Source: Candidatus Levyibacteriota bacterium (GTDB lineage Bacteria; Patescibacteriota; Microgenomatia; Levybacterales; UBA12049). Taken from it: a stretch of DNA of 64,000 nucleotides. The notes beneath the pieces are model-generated. The model searched no databases. It was not told where the DNA came from and saw only the letters and a list, made by a program, of their open reading frames with translations. A program made the translations under genes and the position numbers. Within the stretch, counting starts at the first letter, position 1; every line of letters begins with the position of its first letter. Of this stretch, positions 16,511-28,728 are shown in pieces. The stretch spans positions 12,104-76,103 of the forward strand of contig OY970292.1 of assembly GCA_963716145.1 (NCBI GenBank), in the 5' to 3' direction.

Positions 16511-16547
16511 CCATTCGACAAGCTCAGGATCCTGAGTGTATCGAAGG
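16511..16547. repeat. Nested-hairpin repeat element (TTCGA-CTCAG-loop-CTGAG-TCGAA family), intergenic copy
   Basis: In ccaTTCGAcaagCTCAGgatcCTGAGtgtaTCGAAgg the inner and outer stems are perfect inverted repeats. It is homologous to the purU and DUF1801 leader elements. Its first 19 nt recur at 61185-61203. Confidence 0.5.
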
Positions 16548-16569
16548 AAAAATTTCAAATTGAAAATTA

Positions 16570-17697
16570 CTATCTTTTTATTGCGGATACATAAGCTATG
16601 AAGTTATTTTGTCCCTCGAAAACAATAATTGGCATGAGGTAATCTTGGTTTTCGCCCCCTAAATAATAAGCAAGATATACATTGTTGATAAGTATTTCCT
16701 TATCAGTCCCGACATAGGATGGAATATAAGCGTCCCCATTTTTTAATTCATCAAACGCAGCTTGCACTGTTTTTATCGGATAAGTTCCGGGAGAATCAGT
16801 TGAAATGTATCTGTGCACAAAGCTTGAAGCATCGACTTCAGCGTTATTTTGACCGGAAGCAATCCAAAAACTCATACTTGAGTAGGGCGGATGAGGATAA
16901 AGAACCGGAAGTTTCAACTTTACCTTGGCAGCTCCCTTTTTGCCGGTATCCAGATTATATTCAAGATCTTTTTGGTATAAATCAACTCTTATTACTTTAG
17001 CTGAGGAAAGACTTGTTGTCGGAATCAACGTGCCACTCCTAATAGCAAATAATTGCGGGTATGTATTGTAAGTGATATCTTTTGATGGGTTTTGGGTTTT
17101 GGTCAGATCAATATCAGTGGGAAGTAGTTCTATTGAAGATAGGAAATCTTGAACGGTTTGTATAGCATTATTTTCATCAGATAAATTTTCAGCACCCAAC
17201 ACGGTAAGAGATGACAAGTAGCTAGAGGATATTATGAAATCGAATGTAACGATATCAAATTGCAGCTTGCGGTTAATTCCGATTGGTTCATTCCATTCAT
17301 ATTTCCCGTTTCCAAGTGAAATTTCCGGAACTACTTTTCCCTGTTGATCGGCAAATCTTAGAGTTTCAGCTTTGGCCTTGGCTTTGTCAAGATTAAGAAG
17401 GTTAGGTGAATCCTTCACAAGAGGATAGATATTTAAACGGTCGGGAAATTGAGGAAGAGTACCCGAGATAGTATTGATGCTATAAGTAAAATTGTCGTTA
17501 ATTTCGCTTTGGGGAAACTGTAAAGAAGACAGTACGCCATATTTTTGATTTGGCGGAGTTATTTTAGGGGGCGCCACTATATTTTTAAACATAACGCTAA
17601 TTCGGAAAATCAGCACCACTACTATAATTAGCCCGATTCCAATACCGGCTCCAATGCCTAGTTTTTTAATCATCTCGGTTGCTTTATGTAAGGACAT
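16570..17697 (-). CDS. Hypothetical membrane-anchored (N-terminal TM) extracytoplasmic protein
   Basis: ORF with N-terminal GIGAGIGIGLIIVVVLIF TM. No recognised domain. Confidence 0.4.
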   Translation of the reverse strand: MSLHKATEMIKKLGIGAGIGIGLIIVVVLIFRISVMFKNIVAPPKITPPNQKYGVLSSLQFPQSEINDNFTYSINTISGTLPQFPDRLNIYPLVKDSPNLLNLDKAKAKAETLRFADQQGKVVPEISLGNGKYEWNEPIGINRKLQFDIVTFDFIISSSYLSSLTVLGAENLSDENNAIQTVQDFLSSIELLPTDIDLTKTQNPSKDITYNTYPQLFAIRSGTLIPTTSLSSAKVIRVDLYQKDLEYNLDTGKKGAAKVKLKLPVLYPHPPYSSMSFWIASGQNNAEVDASSFVHRYISTDSPGTYPIKTVQAAFDELKNGDAYIPSYVGTDKEILINNVYLAYYLGGENQDYLMPIIVFEGQNNFIAYVSAIKR

Positions 17698-17735
17698 ATA
17701 TTGAGTATAGGTAAATTATCAAGTACAATCAAGAC

Positions 17736-19127
17736 ATGGTCAGAACACGTATCCCCCCAAGCCCTACCGGAGAAGATATTCACATAGGAAATTTATACAC
17801 GGCTCTGATGAATTATTCATTCGCCAAAAAAAATGAGGGAAAATTCATAATTCGGATTGAAGACACCGATAGAGAGCGTTTCATTGAAGGATCAGAAGAA
17901 AAAATTCTTGCTTCTTTAAAATCATACGGCTTGCAGTATGATGAAGGACCAGACAATGGCGGTCCTTACGAGCCTTACAGGCAGTCAGAACGTCTTCCGA
18001 TTTATAAAAAGTATGCTGATGAATTGATAGAAAAAAAAGTTGCATATTATTGTTTTTGTTCAAAAGAGCGTTTGGAAGAGCTCCGTAATTCTCAGTTGAA
18101 AGATGGTAAAAAGACCAGGTATGATAAATTCTGTTTACAAAACGTTAAAGACGGGCCTGAAAGGGTAAAAAAAGGAGAAGCGCATGTTGTACGCTTAAAC
18201 GTTTTGCCAAATAAAAAGATCTGGTTTGAAGACCTCATCCGGGGGCAGATCACAATTGATTCTTCAGAGATTGATGACCAGGTTCTTTTAAAATCGGATG
18301 GGTATCCGACATATCATTTGGCGGTTGTTGTTGATGATCATCTGATGGAAATAACCCATGTTATCCGCGCCGAAGAATGGATTTCCTCAACCCCAAAGCA
18401 CGTTTTACTTTATGAGTCTTTTGGTTGGGAGCAGCCAATTTTTGCCCATATGCCGATTCTTAGAAATCCGGATAAGTCCAAACTTTCAAAACGTAAGAAT
18501 CCGGTTTGGGCATCTTGGTACCTGAAAGAAGGAATTCTTCCTGAAGCAATGCTTAATTACCTTGCGCTTCTTGGCTGGAGCCATCCTGAGGAGAAGGAAA
18601 TTTTCCCCCTTTCTGAATTTATAGATTTATTTAAGCTGGAAGACGTAAAACCGGTTGGGCCGATTTTTGATTTTGTAAAATTAAAATGGATGAATCAGCA
18701 GTATGTCCTCAAGATGACAGATGCTGAGCTTAAAGATAAAATTAAAGAATTTTCTTCAAAAGCCAAGAGCTTAGAACCTGAAGTATTGGACGCTCTGATT
18801 CCTCTTATTAAGTCCCGCATGGAAACACTGGCGGACTTTGAGAAATTGACCGGAGTTTTTTTTGATGAAATAAAGGAAATAAGTTTTGATCAAAAAGAAA
18901 AACAGATTGCAGTAAGCTTGAGTGATGAGTTGTCAAAAATTAAAGACTGGAAACATGATGATATTTTTAATACTATTAAAGAGACGATGGTTACCAATAA
19001 ATTAAGAATGCCCGTATTTTATAGATTATTTATAGGAGAGGAGCGGGGATTGCCGCTCCCGGAAACACTTGAGATCCTGGGTCAGGAAAAATCGGTTGAA
19101 AGACTTAAGGAGGTAGCAGCTAAATGA
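17736..19127 (+). CDS. gltX: Glutamate--tRNA ligase
   Basis: PSPTGEDIHIGN (HIGH) and KLSKR (KMSKS) class I motifs. 463 aa. Confidence 0.85.
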   Translation: MVRTRIPPSPTGEDIHIGNLYTALMNYSFAKKNEGKFIIRIEDTDRERFIEGSEEKILASLKSYGLQYDEGPDNGGPYEPYRQSERLPIYKKYADELIEKKVAYYCFCSKERLEELRNSQLKDGKKTRYDKFCLQNVKDGPERVKKGEAHVVRLNVLPNKKIWFEDLIRGQITIDSSEIDDQVLLKSDGYPTYHLAVVVDDHLMEITHVIRAEEWISSTPKHVLLYESFGWEQPIFAHMPILRNPDKSKLSKRKNPVWASWYLKEGILPEAMLNYLALLGWSHPEEKEIFPLSEFIDLFKLEDVKPVGPIFDFVKLKWMNQQYVLKMTDAELKDKIKEFSSKAKSLEPEVLDALIPLIKSRMETLADFEKLTGVFFDEIKEISFDQKEKQIAVSLSDELSKIKDWKHDDIFNTIKETMVTNKLRMPVFYRLFIGEERGLPLPETLEILGQEKSVERLKEVAAK

Positions 19128-19714
19128 ACTTTTCATTGGCTCGATTTGTTTCCTTTATTTTTAATCCTCTATTAATCTTGACCGTCTTACCGTACTTTCT
19201 TGTCTACAAATCAACAAATAATGTCAACTCCGCTCTACTTTGGACTGTTTATACTGCTGTTTTTCTATTCGCAATTGCAGTATTTATATTTGTAGGAGTA
19301 CGGCGTAAAATATTTACCGACTGGGATGTTTCAGTTCGTAAGCAGCGCCCGGTTCTTTTTTCCTTTTTTCTTATTTTGGGAGTTATTTATTTGTTGGGGC
19401 TGTTCTTATTTCAGGCTCCGCGCATCCTATTTATAGTAACTACGAGTTTGCTGGTTGGAGTTTTGGTAGTGAGTGCTATAAATATTAAGATTAAGGCAAG
19501 TCTTCATGTAGCAACGGTGGCGGCACTTATTTTAGGCATTGTTCTGGGTTTGGGCGGATATTATATATTTTTACTTCTTGTTGTGCCTCTTGTCGGCTGG
19601 TCCAGAGTAAAGCTGAAGAGACATTCTGTCTCAGAAACTGTAGTTGGCGGAGTTGTCGGTAGTCTGTTATTATTGGGAATATACGCCTTTTTTGAAGTGT
19701 TTTTACAGAAATAG
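19124..19714 (+). CDS. PAP2-family lipid phosphatase (PgpB-like)
   Basis: Polytopic protein. KQRP, SLH and SRVKLKRHSVSE match the KxxxxxxRP / SGH / SRxxxxxHxxxD/E PAP2 motifs. It overlaps the gltX stop. Confidence 0.55.
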   Translation: MNFSLARFVSFIFNPLLILTVLPYFLVYKSTNNVNSALLWTVYTAVFLFAIAVFIFVGVRRKIFTDWDVSVRKQRPVLFSFFLILGVIYLLGLFLFQAPRILFIVTTSLLVGVLVVSAINIKIKASLHVATVAALILGIVLGLGGYYIFLLLVVPLVGWSRVKLKRHSVSETVVGGVVGSLLLLGIYAFFEVFLQK

Positions 19715-19717
19715 ATT

Positions 19718-20086
19718 ATGGATTTTAAGAAATTTAAAAAATCTTTCGGCTTCGCCTTATCAGGTATAGATTATGCTCTTAACAGCGATCAGAATCTGGT
19801 TGTGCATTTTATTGTCTCGTTTCTGGTGATAATAGCTAGTATTATTTTGAAAATAACCACATTTGAAATGGCAATTCTGGGTCTTACAATCCTTATTGTT
19901 ATTACAACTGAAATGCTGAATACTTCAATTGAGAAAGTAACTGATTTGGTCACCAAAGAACATAGAATGGATGCAAAAATCGCAAAAGATGTAGCATCGG
20001 GAATGGTTTTGATAACAGCTATGGGTTCAATAATAATCGGTATACTTATTTTTCTCCCCCACATCCTCCATTTATTTCGCATATAA
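19718..20086 (+). CDS. dgkA: Diacylglycerol/undecaprenol kinase (DgkA family)
   Basis: 122 aa, 3 TM. The EMLNTSIEKVTDLV and AKDVASGMVLI motifs are typical of prokaryotic DAGK. Confidence 0.7.
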   Translation: MDFKKFKKSFGFALSGIDYALNSDQNLVVHFIVSFLVIIASIILKITTFEMAILGLTILIVITTEMLNTSIEKVTDLVTKEHRMDAKIAKDVASGMVLITAMGSIIIGILIFLPHILHLFRI

Positions 20087-20130
20087 ATAGCTTTTTGGGT
20101 TGGAGTTTAGTAAAATGAAGCTTGTTTAAA

Positions 20131-20201
20131 TAATATTACCGAGTCGCCCGCCTCGACTCGCAGTCGCTTGTCGACGCGAGGCGGGTCTAATGGTAGGACA
20201 A
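20131..20201 (+). repeat. Duplicated 5' half of tRNA-Gln (pseudo-tRNA fragment with 6 nt of 5' flank). It is interrupted in the D-arm by a 39-nt perfect palindrome.
   Basis: taatatTACCGAGTCG[cccgcctcgactcgcagtcgcttgtcgacgcgaggcggg]TCTAATGGTAGGACAA matches positions -6..27 of the intact tRNA-Gln at 20453, except for the inserted hairpin (CCCGCCTCG...CGAGGCGGG). Confidence 0.5.
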
Positions 20202-20203
20202 AA

Positions 20204-20449
20204 ATGAAATATACAGTCTATGTTCTTTCTAGCTTAAGCACCCCTAAAAGTTATGTTGGATATACTGATAATCTAGATCGAAGACTTGGGGAACACAATT
20301 CGGGGAAAAACAATTATACACAAAAATATAAGCCTTGGAAGGTTGTGCATACAGAATCATTTAAGTCTATGGAGGAAGCAGTAGGAAGAGAAAAATATCT
20401 TAAATCAGCAAGTGGAAGAAAGTTAGTGCTAAAAAAATTATTTACTTAA
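20204..20449 (+). CDS. GIY-YIG nuclease-domain protein (small free-standing, about 81 aa)
   Basis: MKYTVYVLSS...KSYVGYTDNLDRRLGEHNSG...W contains the GIY..YIG..R..EH core. The start was set to the Met at 20204, since the ORF-track start at 20168 lies inside the pseudo-tRNA. The ORF ends 3 nt before tRNA-Gln. Confidence 0.7.
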   Translation: MKYTVYVLSSLSTPKSYVGYTDNLDRRLGEHNSGKNNYTQKYKPWKVVHTESFKSMEEAVGREKYLKSASGRKLVLKKLFT

Positions 20450-20452
20450 TAT

Positions 20453-20526
20453 TACCGAGTCGTCTAATGGTAGGACAACAGATTCTGGATCTGTTTATTG
20501 GGGTTCGAGTCCCTGCTCGGTAGCCA
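20453..20526 (+). tRNA. tRNA-Gln (anticodon CTG), with encoded CCA
   Basis: Manual fold. Acceptor TACCGAG/CTCGGTA. D-stem GTCT/GGAC. Anticodon stem ACAGA/TCTGT with loop TTCTGGA. T-arm TGGGG-TTCGAGT-CCCTG. Discriminator G, then CCA. Confidence 0.8.
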
Positions 20527-20574
20527 TACCTTTGAGTGCCACTGACCGAGGTCTCTATTTATCTTGGTAAAGAT

Positions 20575-21192
20575 ATGAAAAATCCAACAAGTACAATTAA
20601 CCACGTTGATAGAAACACGCCTCCTGGACAACATGTCATAAAAATCGCCAAACCTGGATACGATGTCACAGATCTTAATAAAGAACGAGCAGTTAATTAC
20701 TCAAAGAAAAAAATATTACCCCATTTATTATCTGCTCTTGCCTTGCCTTATCTTATAGGGGCAAGACGTCAAGTAATCAGGTATCTAGAGGTAGCTTCAA
20801 CACTTGAGAATAATTCTATTGTGGGAACCCAGGGGTGCATACACGAAGTGTCAACTCTTTTTGAAGATCTCAATACAGTAGGTAAATATATGAAAAAATG
20901 TGGAAAAGAAAATGAATTACATAAATTGTGGCTTGATGTCCGTAATCACATAAGACACGACATCAGAGAAGAACTGGACAATGAAAGTCGTGAAGAAAAA
21001 ATTTCGAGAGCAAAGAATCTCAAACTGCATCCTAAACTTCAAATGAGTATGGGTTTTACAGTTGATCATATAACAGTCGGGGGTACAAATATAGAAATTA
21101 AACAAATTACTAATTATCTAAATTGGGCAGATGATATTATAACTTCTATTTTAGAAGAGGCCAAGAAAAAAGGATTCTATAAAAGTAATTAA
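20575..21192 (+). CDS. Hypothetical protein immediately downstream of tRNA-Gln
   Basis: ORF. The start was set to the ATG at 20575. No recognisable domain. Its tRNA-adjacent position suggests island cargo. Confidence 0.35.
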   Translation: MKNPTSTINHVDRNTPPGQHVIKIAKPGYDVTDLNKERAVNYSKKKILPHLLSALALPYLIGARRQVIRYLEVASTLENNSIVGTQGCIHEVSTLFEDLNTVGKYMKKCGKENELHKLWLDVRNHIRHDIREELDNESREEKISRAKNLKLHPKLQMSMGFTVDHITVGGTNIEIKQITNYLNWADDIITSILEEAKKKGFYKSN

Positions 21193-21676: not shown

Positions 21677-23212
21677 TTGGAAAATTTAATTGTTAGGGGT
21701 CAAGAGAATATTCGTCACAAAAGAAGATCCGCAGATATAACTAGACAGCTGTTTTTGATAATAGCTGCAGCCAGCATAGCGCTATTTAGTCCTCTATCAG
21801 CAATTGCCGCTACACCAACATCAACTATACCCGTTCAATACCGCAGTAGCGGTAAAACCGCACCCGATGGCAACTTGCCTGTGAGTTCCTCATTTGCGGC
21901 TAAGAGCGCATCGCCAAGCCCTGCGATTCAAGCAAATTTTCCAACTCCTCCGCCTAATCAGCAACCTGAATGCCCAGCGGTTCTTATGACTAAGTGTCAC
22001 TTCGTGCCCGCTGCATACATTCAAAATGATCCGAATAACAAGGTTGATTATGGTAATTACGATTTTGCCAACCGGCCCAACGGCGGTCTTGTTTCACAGC
22101 CTGGGAAGAAGCTGGAGATCACCAGTGTTGTAATACATGATACGGAAGGACCACTTGAGAGCGCGATCGCGACATTTAAAGATCCCACCTCATATGTCAG
22201 CGCGCACTACATTATTGATAAAGACGGTCAAATTTATCAGATGGTGCGGACCAAAGACGTAGCTTGGCATGCAGGTAATTGGTACACCAATATTCACTCA
22301 ATTGGTATTGAGCACGTTGGTCACGCAGTGAATGGACGAGTTGAATACACACCCGCCATGTATGCCTCAAGCGCTTTGCTTACCAAATATCTGGCACAGC
22401 GCTACAATTTCCCAATGGACCATGCGCACATTCTCGGCCATGACAATGTACAAGGTCCCACCCAGGCTTTTGTTGCTGGCATGCACTATGATCCGGGTCC
22501 ATTCTGGAATTGGCAGATGGAATTCTCTATTATGGGTGTTCCGCTTCCGACAATTGATCTAACCAGCCCATTGGTTACCATAACTAAGCCTTTTACCATG
22601 GATAATAATTCACCGGTCCAGGATTGCTCAAGCGGCACATGTGTGGCTTTGCCCAATCAGCCCACTAATTTTGTTTACTTACGTACTTCACCCAGCAGCA
22701 CAGCGCCGCTTTTATCGGACGCGGCAATTCATCCTGATGGTAGTCCTGGTACTACGCGCATTGAAGACTGGTCGGCAACGGCTGTCTATGGTCAGCAATT
22801 TGCAGTTGCTAAAAAGCAGGGGGATTGGACTGCAATTTGGTTTGGCGGAAAAATGGGTTGGTTTCAAAACCAAGGCCAAGTCCGCAACGCTCTTCCAAGC
22901 CGTGGTCAGTATGTAACGCCAAAATTAGGAGTAAGCAGTATTCCGGTATATGGCCGTGCTTATCCTGAGAGCAGTGCATATAATGGTACTCAGGTGCCTG
23001 TTCAGTCGGTAGTTCCGCTTGACTATACTATTCCGGCAGGCCAGCGCTACAGTACCAGTGGGCCCGTGAGTGCTGATTATTACTATGCTTGGGCTATTGA
23101 CGCAAGCCTGCCTGATGATCATACTGTGGTTGTAGGCAATAAAGTTTACTTGCAGATCCAGTACAATCACCGCATCGCCTACGTCGACCGCGACGACATA
23201 ATTCTGAAATAG
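21677..23212 (+). CDS. N-acetylmuramoyl-L-alanine amidase (Amidase_2/PGRP domain) with a signal peptide and a large C-terminal domain
   Basis: Amidase_2 core: VVIHDTEGPLESAI...SAHYIIDKDGQIYQMV...AWHAGNWYTNIHSIGIEHVGH...ILGHDNV...HYDPGPFWNW. Confidence 0.75.
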   Translation: MENLIVRGQENIRHKRRSADITRQLFLIIAAASIALFSPLSAIAATPTSTIPVQYRSSGKTAPDGNLPVSSSFAAKSASPSPAIQANFPTPPPNQQPECPAVLMTKCHFVPAAYIQNDPNNKVDYGNYDFANRPNGGLVSQPGKKLEITSVVIHDTEGPLESAIATFKDPTSYVSAHYIIDKDGQIYQMVRTKDVAWHAGNWYTNIHSIGIEHVGHAVNGRVEYTPAMYASSALLTKYLAQRYNFPMDHAHILGHDNVQGPTQAFVAGMHYDPGPFWNWQMEFSIMGVPLPTIDLTSPLVTITKPFTMDNNSPVQDCSSGTCVALPNQPTNFVYLRTSPSSTAPLLSDAAIHPDGSPGTTRIEDWSATAVYGQQFAVAKKQGDWTAIWFGGKMGWFQNQGQVRNALPSRGQYVTPKLGVSSIPVYGRAYPESSAYNGTQVPVQSVVPLDYTIPAGQRYSTSGPVSADYYYAWAIDASLPDDHTVVVGNKVYLQIQYNHRIAYVDRDDIILK

Positions 23213-27675: not shown

Positions 27676-28728
27676 ATGGAAATTTGGACCACTTTTACAC
27701 CTAGAAAAGTTTCATGGGAACTCACTTATGTTAAGACAAACGGAGAGAGTTCGAGCAGTAATTGGCAGGAAAATATCGGTTTGATAGATAATTCGCTTGA
27801 AAAATTAAAAGATTCAGGGATTGTTGGAATCAGACTTGTAATCTTTCCCTCAGAAATAACAAATGATGGTGAGTTATTTGATTGGAAACTTATTGAAAAT
27901 ATGCTGGATCTTTGCAGTAAGCATAAACTCAGGGTTGATTTATGTATCGGTCCTTTCCAGTACCCACATTATCCCGGAATTTATTTACCTTCGGAATTGT
28001 TAAAAATATTTTCGCCACGAGGTAAGCATATTGATAGTGATTTCGTATTTAAAGAATTCGGCACAAGATTTTTAAAAGCGCAAATACGGAAATTTGGAAA
28101 TGATAAAAGAATACATGGGTTTCATTTTGCCAACGAATGGCCTGATGAGCAGAATATTGAAGGTAAAAGAGGTTTGAGAATTGGAGTTTCCGAAAAATTT
28201 ATGCAAGACTCTGCACGTTTGTTAAAATCTCTGACAAAAAAACCGATACTGCTCAATACCAATATTGATGCACTCGACCACAGAAGAGTTATAAAAGTTT
28301 TCGGGGAAATATTGGAAATTTTAGCAAAACAGGTGAAATTGGGATTTGATATTTACCCTTCACAAAGCAAGTGGAAGAAAGTACCGTTACAAAAATTACG
28401 GAACAAAGTTTATGGTTATTCTAAATCTTTCAAATCCATGCAGAATAAATTCCCGGAATCTGAAATGTATTTTGCAGAAGTTGAAGCCCAACCATGGGGC
28501 GGTGGTCAATCCTGGTATCAGTTGATTAACGAAGAAACTAATCCAAAAGAAAAAATTCTGACTTATACCAAAAGCTCACTTAACGAAACATGGAGTAAAT
28601 ATATTGCAGGGACAAATTGCCAGGCATTAAGTCTTTGGGGGTCTGATTTCTGGCTATCTGCTGACATGATGGGAATTAAATGGCCTCTTGAGCAGGTCAG
28701 TTGCCTTCTGGATTCTTTACCGGACTGA
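27676..28728 (+). CDS. Putative TIM-barrel glycoside hydrolase (GH5/clan GH-A-like)
   Basis: FANEWP is an NEP-like acid/base motif. A later FAEVEAQPWG is the nucleophile region. No signal peptide. Confidence 0.35.
   Translation: MEIWTTFTPRKVSWELTYVKTNGESSSSNWQENIGLIDNSLEKLKDSGIVGIRLVIFPSEITNDGELFDWKLIENMLDLCSKHKLRVDLCIGPFQYPHYPGIYLPSELLKIFSPRGKHIDSDFVFKEFGTRFLKAQIRKFGNDKRIHGFHFANEWPDEQNIEGKRGLRIGVSEKFMQDSARLLKSLTKKPILLNTNIDALDHRRVIKVFGEILEILAKQVKLGFDIYPSQSKWKKVPLQKLRNKVYGYSKSFKSMQNKFPESEMYFAEVEAQPWGGGQSWYQLINEETNPKEKILTYTKSSLNETWSKYIAGTNCQALSLWGSDFWLSADMMGIKWPLEQVSCLLDSLPD

Follow-up and report, generated by a model that had tools for sequence, protein, structure and literature searches.

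Organization of the tRNA-Gln locus

The window, the whole 64-kb stretch of DNA that was analysed, carries a small GIY-YIG nuclease gene directly upstream of tRNA-Gln(CTG) and downstream of a split copy of the 5' part of this tRNA (Table 1).

Table 1 Features of the tRNA-Gln locus, with coordinates in the 64-kb window
Feature	Position	Strand	Evidence or remark
Promoter-like box ATAGCTTTTT-N9-TTTAGTAAAAT-GAAGCT, with -10-like TAAAAT	20087..20122	+	Conservation across loci
Left arm of the tRNA 5' copy (mimic): 6 nt taatat and tRNA-Gln nt 1-10 (TACCGAGTCG)	20131..20146	+	Exactly repeats 20447-20462
Fragment of tRNA-Gln nt 1-10	20137-20146	+	Exact repeat
Palindrome P, 39 nt: 9-bp G+C arms CCCGCCTCG/CGAGGCGGG, conserved 21-nt centre	20147..20185	.	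Only such hairpin in the window
Right arm of the mimic: tRNA-Gln nt 11-26 (TCTAATGGTAGGACAA)	20186..20201	+	Exactly repeats 20463-20478
Stand-alone GIY-YIG nuclease gene, 81 aa, UPF0213/SLX1-like clade	20204..20449	+	PF01541, E=5e-17
Intact tRNA-Gln(CTG), encoded CCA included	20453..20526	+	ARAGORN; Rfam RF00005, 56.7 bits

The 32-mer TAATATTACCGAGTCGTCTAATGGTAGGACAA is intact at 20447-20478, and its upstream copy consists of 20131-20146 and 20186-20201, split by the palindrome P, CCCGCCTCG-N21-CGAGGCGGG. This confirms two observations of the first-pass annotation, a 32-nt repeat that is intact in tRNA-Gln(CTG) and split upstream, and a perfect 39-nt hairpin as the interruption of the D-arm in the upstream copy. 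The copied part had been described as 5' flank plus tRNA positions 1-27, which is correct in canonical numbering; in the linear tRNA it spans positions 1-26. As annotated, the ATG of the ORF lies 2 nt past the tRNA fragment and the TAA stop, itself a part of the repeated taatat, 3 nt ahead of tRNA nt 1. Measured against an empty tRNA-Gln gene, the locus is longer by 316 bp, placed between tRNA nt 10 and 11 in the order P (39 nt), copy of tRNA nt 11-26, 2 nt, 81-aa ORF, 3 nt and copy of tRNA nt 1-10. Because the insert ends with this last copy, an intact tRNA is regenerated downstream. The P-interrupted 5' fragment stays beside the original promoter, which the cassette separates from the tRNA gene body. 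The proposed tie between a GIY-YIG cassette and a partial duplication of its tRNA target was supported.

ARAGORN called tRNA-Gln(CTG) at the downstream position only and left the upstream copy uncalled. The Rfam tRNA match covered 20453-20523, and no other match was obtained at E<=1 within 19900-20800. A second intact tRNA in the upstream copy was rejected, in agreement with the first-pass annotation, since both programs detect the downstream tRNA alone. An independent Logan assembly (L001) was 100% identical over window positions 16540-20480, thus the locus is no assembly artefact; the layout is also shared by homologous loci from many samples. Downstream in the window, att-like repeats of the tRNA 3' end of at least 11 nt were absent. 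The 205-aa gene following the tRNA, initially regarded as an orphan, has 89 homologues and represents a conserved family.

Putative expression signals

The promoter-like box is invariant or nearly so when five filled loci are aligned with the empty locus L030. It is placed 9 nt before tRNA nt 1 in L030 and precedes the tRNA 5' copy in the window. A simple sigma-70 scan did not flag it; from conservation and position we infer that it is the promoter of the tRNA-Gln unit. The right arm of the mimic contains an AGGA 7 nt ahead of the ATG, which is likely the Shine-Dalgarno sequence of the GIY-YIG ORF. A terminator scan of the + strand revealed none between ORF and tRNA and none between P and ORF. 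P as intrinsic terminator of the upstream DAGK gene was dismissed, as the + strand scan was empty and P is not followed by a T-run. The ORF, probably without a promoter of its own, would be transcribed from the tRNA promoter within the pre-tRNA leader and translated from the AGGA that the D-arm copy supplies, and RNase P would separate the ORF transcript from the tRNA.

The GIY-YIG protein

The match of the 81-aa protein to PF01541 covers residues 2-72 with 62.4 bits (gathering score 22.6). Among 26 homologues, Y6, Y17, G19, H31, N32 and E63 are invariant and R27 is nearly so; the catalytic residues of the GIY-YIG superfamily, two tyrosines, arginine, histidine and the metal-binding glutamate, are all present. 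The best solved relatives are the UPF0213 protein BH0048 (1zg2, E=7.9e-12), 1ywl (E=1.7e-9) and SLX1 (7cq2, E=3.9e-7), and this kinship together with the single-domain size places the protein in the UPF0213/SLX1 clade. The family members found have mostly 78-130 aa. With dN/dS values of 0.06-0.18, the sequences demonstrate an ORF under purifying selection with an intact catalytic domain. The stand-alone UPF0213/YhbQ/SLX1-like type is abundant: 3,767 clusters at 50% identity match it with E<=1e-10.

The first-pass annotation had likened the cassette to one of the homing-endonuclease type. This was not upheld: the 81 aa are all catalytic domain, closest to UPF0213/SLX1 and without the C-terminal DNA-binding domain of an I-TevI-type enzyme, and the group I intron endonuclease model TIGR01453 scored 16.7 bits against a cutoff of 56.05, the match to phrog_314 reaching only E=4.6e-4. 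Phage origin was rejected, as viral contigs contained no relatives of the protein and phage records gave only weak matches of 36-48% identity. A known defence system was likewise rejected, PADLOC yielding only partial matches with E>=0.001 (best E=0.001) and no convincing toxin-antitoxin model.

The palindrome and the tRNA fragment

The 64-kb window has no G+C-rich perfect 9-bp hairpin other than P, and no palindrome like it arose in 100 shuffles. Folded as DNA, it has -13.9 kcal/mol (z=-3.4). The P elements of L004, L010, L011, L013 and L014 are 90-100% identical to that of the window, while the ORFs of the same loci share 60-74% of their nucleotides and merely 38-56% of their third positions. 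P is thus the best-conserved part of the cassette, above the ORF. The reverse complement of the window P matches the P of L011 at 38/39 positions, hence P exists in both orientations; its orientation is flipped between loci while the 21-nt centre keeps its sequence. Pairing of the stems is maintained by compensatory changes (CCTCGAC/GTCGAGG, CCTTGA/TCAAGG, CCTAGAC/GTCTAGG). P was always located at D-arm or T-arm positions. In 805 kb of related DNA it is essentially restricted to cassettes, matches elsewhere looking like chance; about 0.73 Mb of related loci gave cassette copies and six non-hairpin chance matches. The P junctions show no target-site duplication. A dispersed MITE or REP was rejected: inverted arms are present, but there is no duplication, one copy in the window, and only cassette copies in the loci sampled.

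SLX1 cuts branched and cruciform-like DNA, an activity that suits a palindromic cis site. P may be the double-stranded or cruciform DNA site that the SLX1/UPF0213-like nuclease would bind or cut; this role is suggested by its palindromic form, its independence of orientation and a conservation above that of the coding sequence.

The tRNA fragment was always copied from the neighbouring tRNA in the loci compared. In ten CPR loci, the left arm had 4 mismatches in a total of 100 nt to the local tRNA versus a mean of 3.4 per 10 nt to the tRNAs of the other loci (permutation p about 1e-5). The P-proximal TCTAATGGTA of the right arm is kept in the seven loci with P between nt 10 and 11, with one change in L013; the distal part has decayed in L004, L013 and L014. 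The outer boundary of the fragment is the mature 5' or 3' end of the tRNA.

Distribution of the cassette

The cassette layout was found at tRNA-Gln in 11 other CPR loci. In ten CPR loci, P follows nt 10 or nt 7 of the tRNA-Gln 5' copy, the ORF starts 14-20 nt further on, and tRNA-Gln comes next; two further CPR loci are degenerate or decayed (L021 and L028, the latter a decayed cassette copy). Upstream, the gene order GluRS-PAP2-DAGK is shared by the window, L004, L010 and L011. A GluRS-based search for orthologous metagenome loci gave no synteny in 78 of 80 cases, which were therefore uninformative, and DAGK was kept in L030 and L031 only. By its flanking genes L030 is the closest relative found (GluRS 71%, DAGK 79% identical to the window), and its site is empty: the same promoter abuts an intact tRNA-Gln, and the locus is colinear with the filled ones except for the cassette. 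The comparison of orthologous loci proposed with the first-pass annotation produced an empty site as evidence of gain or loss, but not of a recent one-off insertion, as the synteny in L004, L010 and L011 makes the arrangement old. The CPR cassette looks largely vertically inherited at this locus over deep divergence (GluRS 51-71%).

A same-strand tRNA was within 150 nt of 24 out of 30 homologous ORFs. In relatives from the Bacteroidota, the cassettes are at tRNA-Ala, Arg, Leu(GAG), Leu(CAA), Glu and Trp, and the design therefore spans two bacterial phyla. Two forms occur. In the 5' type, the copied fragment comes from the 5' side of the tRNA and holds P in its D-arm; the 3' type is its mirror image, with a 3' fragment and P in the T-arm. 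Some loci hold tandem cassettes. P itself is in tandem in L024 alone, as runs of 3 and 4 units. L112 corresponds to the L110 locus with a different copy number, both from Cytophagales populations, and L133 carries an ORF-less fragment with P upstream of tRNA-Val. The recurrence next to many tRNA genes in two phyla points to an apparently undescribed family of tRNA-gene-colonising cassettes rather than a one-off accident; the openly searchable full-text literature held no description of the architecture.

The GIY-YIG identities are star-like (69-74%) and the GluRS tree is structured (49-71%), and the orientation of P is incongruent with the GluRS tree. This mismatch of ORF and host trees can be taken as weak evidence, an 81-aa tree having little resolution. 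Identical or near-identical ORFs at two loci were not observed, P0005, P0069 and P0071 each being present in one genomic context; there is hence no direct sign of recent transposition.

Comparison with known systems

SegB of phage T4 is a free-standing GIY-YIG homing endonuclease whose gene resides in a tRNA gene cluster (PMC2330249). Systems of this type resemble the cassette in having an intron-free GIY-YIG gene among or beside tRNA genes, with a presence that varies between relatives, and they are thought to spread by DNA breaks and repair with co-conversion of flanking markers. However, their proteins are longer, and SegB is reported to cleave the allele without the gene (PMC2330249), whereas the cassette combines a bare 81-aa SLX1/UPF0213 domain with a conserved palindrome, a partial tRNA copy and an intact tRNA target alongside. 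The bacterial members of the UPF0213/YhbQ/SLX1 clade (PDB 1zg2, 1ywl, 7cq2; PMC1564403) are likewise single-domain proteins, of 96-107 aa, with the same catalytic Tyr, Tyr, Arg, His and Glu, while SLX1 requires SLX4 and has a C-terminal zinc-finger domain. In the literature searched, no tRNA linkage or associated palindrome was found for bacterial UPF0213 proteins.

Genomic islands and prophages with integration sites in tRNA genes share with the cassette the landing site, the regeneration of a functional tRNA, a partial copy as direct repeat and precise loss by recombination between the repeats. They typically comprise kilobases, carry an integrase gene and in most cases duplicate the tRNA's 3' part; the cassette has about 0.3 kb and no recombinase, duplicates the 5' part here, is positioned between promoter and tRNA, and one of its repeats is always split by the palindrome. 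An integrase-mediated island was rejected for the window, as the 316 bp hold a single 81-aa GIY-YIG ORF and no tyrosine or serine recombinase gene. REP/RAYT and IS200/IS605 elements also pair one small gene with a conserved imperfect palindrome as candidate cis site, but their enzymes are HUH/Y1 transposases and REPs are scattered in numerous copies, in contrast to a GIY-YIG protein and a confined P. In type III toxin-antitoxin systems (ToxIN), a short structured repeat and a small nuclease gene form one transcription unit, and the tandem P in L024 is reminiscent of this. The differences are that ToxN, an endoribonuclease, has another fold, that no tRNA fragments make up the ToxI repeats, that repeats and toxin are set apart by a terminator, and that P tolerates inversion. 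A type III system was therefore rejected: P is single in the window, there is no terminator between P and ORF, the fold is not ToxN-like and PADLOC was unconvincing.

Origin and maintenance of the cassette

We prefer to see the window cassette as belonging to a widespread family of minimal and probably selfish cassettes that reside within tRNA transcription units of bacteria, a reading to which we give an even chance. Breaks at P or at the equivalent unoccupied D- or T-arm site would make the short tRNA repeats recombine, and this would lead to copying of the cassette into empty alleles by homology-directed repair, to tandem arrays, and to precise loss that restores the intact tRNA. Against a selfish nature stands the persistence over such divergence, during which decay of a purely selfish homing gene would be expected, and cutting at its own P would tend to eliminate an element unless a sister copy repairs the break. 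Classical homing fits the spread poorly: a relative has the empty allele, but the intact tRNA retained beside the gene leaves any target site within the tRNA undisrupted, so the usual immunity logic of homing endonucleases does not apply well. A position of P within one of the repeats is not what a simple staggered-cut target duplication gives. If a circle bearing a P-split tRNA fragment integrated in the Campbell manner, the layout and the arrays would follow, yet the switch of the fragment to a new tRNA species would not, and the first colonisation of a new tRNA species with a target-copied fragment was fitted by no model constructed. We consider only tentatively, as somewhat improbable, that the cassettes form a previously unrecognised class of mobile elements of about 0.3 kb, in which an SLX1-like nuclease and its cognate palindrome would colonise the D-/T-arm region across phyla, duplicatively regenerating the tRNA and leaving a target-copied split fragment.

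A host-serving or addictive RNA module is a rather unlikely alternative to the selfish cassette. The GIY-YIG protein would then act on tRNA or pre-tRNA, the fragment and hairpin P would be its cis-encoded RNA partner (a decoy, a type III-style antitoxin, a leader tuning tRNA-Gln maturation or an mRNA-stabilising end structure), and the domesticated module would persist by use or addiction, not by movement. Lasting vertical persistence at one locus under strong purifying selection is consistent with this, as are the coincidence of the fragment's outer boundary with a mature tRNA end, the invariable location of P in the D- or T-arm, the resemblance of the tandem P in L024 to ToxI repeats, and the compensatory changes in the P stem. 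A fusion of a prokaryotic SLX1-like domain to a TrmH tRNA methyltransferase has been reported and hints at a role on RNA (PMC1564403). However, P is found in both orientations with its centre kept; one RNA strand would swap the loop for its complement, thus a double-stranded DNA site fits better than an RNA motif. A decoy has no need to adjoin the tRNA it copies, while the empty site, tandem arrays, decayed copies and varied tRNA targets resemble the dynamics of mobile DNA. To our knowledge, the characterised GIY-YIG enzymes are DNA nucleases, and the lack of a convincing PADLOC match to defence or toxin-antitoxin systems also speaks against an RNA module.

Two histories suggested by the first-pass annotation are far less probable. 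It had proposed a single insertion of a homing endonuclease at tRNA-Gln with target-site duplication, the old copy being inactivated later by an unrelated MITE-like palindrome. The direct repeats flanking the ORF, the inverted arms of the palindrome and the relative with an empty site would agree with this scenario, but comparison of the loci already contradicts it and we regard it as very improbable: P recurs at a fixed position in homologous cassettes, across many genomes and phyla, as their best-conserved part, it is confined to a single copy in the 64-kb window and to cassettes in the sampled loci instead of being dispersed, it lacks a target-site duplication of its own, and the protein lacks a DNA-binding domain of the I-TevI type. 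An independent arrival of the palindrome was for these reasons abandoned. GIY-YIG genes are often carried in group I introns, which favours the other proposal, a tRNA-Gln intron, of group I or another kind, that was retired by decay of its ribozyme and of which the endonuclease ORF is left. Group I introns are moreover frequent in tRNA genes of Patescibacteria (PMC13011429); that study describes HNH and LAGLIDADG enzymes in anticodon-loop introns and no occurrence of Gln or GIY-YIG. At the locus, Rfam detected no intron or ribozyme at E<=1, the ORF fills the interval with spacers of 2 and 3 nt and leaves no space for a ribozyme, the tRNA is duplicated rather than interrupted and stays intact and colinear, and none of 30 ORF contexts had the ORF within a recognisable tRNA ribozyme. 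An intron relic is, in our judgement, hardly credible.

Implications

The tRNA link, the cognate palindrome and the target-derived fragment together provide a concrete and testable hypothesis for the abundant UPF0213/YhbQ/SLX1-like family. Should the reading as a mobile class be true, it would give this large family its first biological role, and the chemistry of DNA insertion would be unlike known transposase, integrase, intron or intein systems. Mobile cassettes would hide between the promoter and the body of an essential tRNA gene, regenerate that gene and employ a structure-specific nuclease instead of a recombinase. In the very small genomes of CPR bacteria, transcription of the only tRNA-Gln gene would pass through a nuclease gene. 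In genome annotation, tRNA fragments of this split kind give rise to pseudo-tRNA calls beside the genuine tRNAs, and assemblies from short reads could be broken at the palindromes. Experiments are feasible with a named strain, as the 3'-type locus L027 belongs to Carboxylicivirga sediminis strain JR1.

Anatomy of the locus

The tRNA-Gln(CTG) locus of the window is one of a conserved cross-phylum family of cassettes, in which a nuclease gene and a palindrome lie within tRNA transcription units. Repeat finder, pattern searches and shuffles verified both the tRNA repeats and the 39-nt palindrome (P) of the window. The 64 kb hold no other perfect 9-bp hairpin rich in G+C. No paralogue of the GIY-YIG ORF was present elsewhere in the window. 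ARAGORN and Rfam recognised the downstream tRNA only, not the upstream fragment, and an independent assembly from another run was identical to the locus over 3.9 kb. The sequence checks, the tRNA calls, the GIY-YIG domain and the identical assembly thus confirm the cassette described in the first-pass annotation.

The independent short-read Logan contig L001 corresponds to window positions 16540-20480 and breaks off within the tRNA, 31 nt past the stop codon of the ORF. Such an end is consistent with a branch of the k=31 assembly graph at tRNA sequence common to other organisms; such cassettes may often come out truncated in short-read assemblies. A purine-rich 17-nt exact match, AGCAAGTGGAAGAAAGT, between the 3' part of the GIY-YIG ORF and a second ORF is probably due to chance (BLAST E=0.001 within the window).

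Positions of features in the window and in loci fetched for comparison (L numbers)
Locus	Position	Feature	Remark
Window	ends 20086	DAGK gene	read from the window sequence
Window	20087-20122	conserved box ATAGCTTTTT...TTTAGTAAAATGAAGCT	read from the window sequence
Window	20131-20146	taatat + TACCGAGTCG (tRNA-Gln nt 1-10)	read from the window sequence
Window	20147-20185	palindrome P, CCCGCCTCG-N21-CGAGGCGGG	read from the window sequence
Window	20186-20201	TCTAATGGTAGGACAA (tRNA nt 11-26), followed by 'aa'	read from the window sequence
Window	20204-20449	81-aa ORF	clear GIY-YIG domain
Window	20453-20526	tRNA-Gln(CTG)	begins after three bases past the ORF; ARAGORN and Rfam
Window	20407-20423; 28366-28382	17-nt exact match	second copy in ORF 27676-28728
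Window	20575-21189 (+)	205-aa gene	
Window	21677-23212	511-aa ORF	
L030	5379-6681	209-aa ORF (minus strand), then 102-aa and 109-aa ORFs	ends of the latter two overlap
L010	3332-3669	second GIY-YIG subfamily	
L017	2820-3125	second GIY-YIG subfamily	
L021	2825-3180	second GIY-YIG subfamily	
L020, L022, L023	2737-2746	nuclease ORF runs into tRNA	
L110	1737-1746	nuclease ORF runs into tRNA	
L133	2150-2300, 1325-1500, 2463-2640	features of the 'FYTGF(T/S)EN' clade	more distant GIY-YIG clade
L134	1-450	features of the 'FYTGF(T/S)EN' clade	more distant GIY-YIG clade

Conservation at tRNA-Gln and the origin of the fragment

Homologues of the GIY-YIG ORF (56 proteins) were traced back to their contigs, and a scan with one genome per species yielded 17 further loci. 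For all such ORFs of CPR/Patescibacteria, the next gene downstream was a same-strand tRNA-Gln (CTG or TTG), and the GluRS-PAP2-DAGK neighbourhood of the window was kept in L004, L010 and L011. Ten CPR loci had the anatomy of the window: nt 1-10 of the local tRNA-Gln (nt 1-7 in L002, L016 and L017), then P, the next 8-16 tRNA nt, an ATG 14-20 nt past P, and the real tRNA 2-20 nt past the ORF stop. L028 is a decayed copy that kept the tRNA arm and P and lost codons 1-61; in L021, P is degenerate. To judge by these sequences, the arrangement is conserved rather than a one-off.

The acceptor stems of the host tRNAs vary (TACCGAG, TCCGGGA, TGCCGGA, TGTCGAG, TGGGAGA and others), and the fragment varies along. 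Fragments differed from the tRNA of their own locus by 4 mismatches in 100 nt, from those of other loci by a mean of 3.4 per 10 nt; permutation gave p ~1e-5 overall and, when confined to the seven loci that have P between tRNA nt 10 and 11, 8e-4, values inflated by the relatedness of the loci. The rare mismatches (L013, L014, L015, L002) were single drifted bases. About 10 nt on either side of P were kept, while the P-distal part decays in L004, L013 and L014. Since relatives at six other tRNA species each carry a fragment of that particular tRNA, the fragment must stem from the adjacent tRNA gene or be homogenised with it.

In L010, L017 and L021, three CPR genomes, a gene of a second, more distant GIY-YIG subfamily adjoins the 3' end of tRNA-Gln, so that the tRNA is flanked by a nuclease gene on each side. 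The L010 copy has 36 % identity to the protein of the window and is enclosed by inverted repeats (GTCTTTCGCCAAGGCTA ... TAGCCTTG ... GCGAAAGAC); 13 nt of the tRNA 3' end (CTAGTCCGGCAGC), repeated directly, enclose it too. The L017 copy is separated from the tRNA by a 14-bp hairpin (ACTTCGGCTCGCTT/AAGCGAGCCGAAGT).

The empty site

Most loci from a metagenome scan with the GluRS of the window as query lacked synteny. The closest relative, L030 (GluRS 71 %, DAGK 79 % identity), has the same promoter-like box, 9 nt after which an intact tRNA-Gln(CTG) begins, and fragment, P and ORF are all absent from this site. Promoter and tRNA of L030 aligned colinearly with promoter and fragment of five filled loci, the gap being P. 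This alignment marks the box as the native promoter region of the tRNA and places the cassette between box and tRNA body. The GluRS comparison puts L030 with two filled loci, the window and L011, and L004 and L010 in a second group, hence the cassette was either lost in L030 or gained more than once. The GIY identities were flat (69-74 %) and did not mirror the GluRS structure, weak evidence given only 81 residues.

L030 carries three extra ORFs between DAGK and the tRNA-Gln promoter, which shows this interval to be an insertion hotspot. Judged by eye, the 209-aa product resembles an SGNH hydrolase and the 102-aa/109-aa pair a nucleotidyltransferase/HEPN (MNT/HepT-like) toxin-antitoxin pair.

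Other tRNA targets

Same-strand tRNAs occurred within 150 nt of 24 of 30 homologous ORFs; three of the six others were cut by contig ends or lay within arrays containing tRNA fragments. The window-like 5' type was found at tRNA-Ala(GGC) of Flavobacteriaceae, with P again after nt 10 (L020, L022, L023), and with P in the D-loop at tRNA-Arg(ACG) of a Cytophagales population (L110-L119) and at tRNA-Leu(GAG) (L120-L127), the latter two having one and the same P, the perfect 20-nt palindrome CCTGCCTGCCGGCAGGCAGG. The nuclease ORF overlaps the tRNA in several 5'-type cassettes of Bacteroidota, where its stop codon is the TAG of tRNA positions 8-10 (U8-A9-G10), so that the acceptor stem encodes the last residues of the protein.

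The 3' type has the order tRNA, terminator, ORF and copied 3' part of the tRNA, which P splits in the T-arm. It was found at tRNA-Leu(CAA) (L019, L026), tRNA-Glu (L025) and tRNA-Trp (L027, Carboxylicivirga sediminis strain JR1); the outer boundary of the copy is the tRNA 3' end in L025 and L027. Further cassette copies follow on in L019, L024 and L026, in L024 with the 27-nt P itself repeated 3 and 4 times at exact unit boundaries. The L110 locus, single-copy otherwise, occurs in L112 with a different number of tandem copies.

In the 'FYTGF(T/S)EN' clade, other repeat families (GAATGGCACGCC, GAAGAATGTCCTGCGTAGC) surround tRNAs and GIY genes. In L133 a 56-nt P-like palindrome interrupts a 5' fragment of tRNA-Val, which is separated from the tRNA-Val gene downstream by ~60 nt that hold no ORF; two GIY-YIG genes are close by. 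At least three tandem units of ~100 nt precede the GIY gene of L134, which lacks a tRNA.

The nuclease

The GIY-YIG protein is a bare catalytic domain with invariant Y6, Y17, G19, H31, N32 and E63 and nearly invariant R27. Among solved structures, the family profile matched the UPF0213 proteins BH0048 and EF2693 best and SLX1 next; the I-TevI-type model TIGR01453 scored far below threshold for the protein of the window. At E<=1e-10 the family is large, with 3,767 clusters; certain of these have ORFs of two domains, as expected from tandem arrays. The dN/dS ratio was 0.15-0.18 among Flavobacteriaceae copies (dS 0.41) and lower for CPR pairs, but there dS was saturated. Viral contigs yielded no relatives and phage records weak ones only, and no defence-system model gave a convincing match to the protein.

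The palindrome and a possible mechanism

P forms the core of the cassette. With all copies turned the same way, it is 90-100 % identical among the window, L004, L010, L011, L013 and L014 (identical 39-mers in L011 and L014), the ORFs of which share 60-74 % of their nucleotides and 38-56 % at third codon positions. P points one way in the window and L010 and the other way in L004, L011, L013, L014 and L015, a split at odds with the GluRS grouping; window and L011 match at 38/39 positions as reverse complement and at 25/39 in the same orientation. More distant variants retain the ends CCYGCC...GGCRGG and a GACTG/GACTC core, and compensatory changes keep the pairing (CCTTGA/TCAAGG in L016, CCTAGAC/GTCTAGG in L028). 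As single-stranded DNA, P folds well. A relaxed motif matched only at cassettes in ~0.73 Mb of fetched loci, save six matches without hairpin character. Since the constraint on the whole sequence tolerates inversion, P would fit better as a double-stranded DNA site for a protein than as an RNA motif.

We propose that transcription of the cassette relies on the tRNA promoter. At the window locus, no terminator was found between ORF and tRNA, and an AGGA of the D-arm copy lies 7 nt ahead of the ATG. P would be the best candidate site of action for the SLX1-like nuclease, and recombination between the split tRNA repeats would give arrays, a precise empty site and a homogenised fragment. None of the mechanisms that we could derive explains how a newly occupied tRNA species gives rise to its own fragment. 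A serious rival is a host-serving or addictive module acting at the RNA level, as hinted by a report of a TrmH tRNA methyltransferase fused to a prokaryotic SLX1-like domain, the sole context in which the 2006 superfamily classification mentions tRNA (PMC1564403).

The first-pass annotation had proposed a homing-endonuclease-type cassette or retired group I intron HEG that duplicated its tRNA target, with a MITE-like palindrome. This is supported in part. Selfish nuclease-gene cassettes at tRNA genes are rated the known kind to which the locus relates. The intact tRNA retained beside the gene argues against textbook homing with immunity. Identical proteins occurred in a single context every time, therefore recent jumping among the loci traced is not supported. 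A search of literature with few subscription journals found no description of the architecture, and a recent survey of Patescibacteria tRNA introns mentions neither Gln nor GIY-YIG, and neither palindromes nor duplications. The chance that the locus stands for a new class of element is a real one.

The region downstream of tRNA-Gln

The 205-aa gene after the tRNA, previously taken for an orphan, has 89 homologues with 45-85 % identity, a conserved family without Pfam domain. Its closest relatives (81-85 %) have quite different neighbourhoods. One adjoins genes for a ResIII helicase, an RNase_H_2 protein and a protein of OLD-like AAA/TOPRIM type; the gene ahead of another codes for 362 aa and gave no Pfam hit, and farther upstream lie FtsK_gamma and trypsin-like genes. 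The stretch 3' of tRNA-Gln looks variable, and the 205-aa gene like a mobile accessory gene within it. Between 21700 and 23000, across the 511-aa ORF, the G+C content rises to 0.45-0.51 (window, 0.39); this part of the variable region may be acquired DNA, and by eye the ORF product looks like an N-acetylmuramoyl-L-alanine amidase domain.
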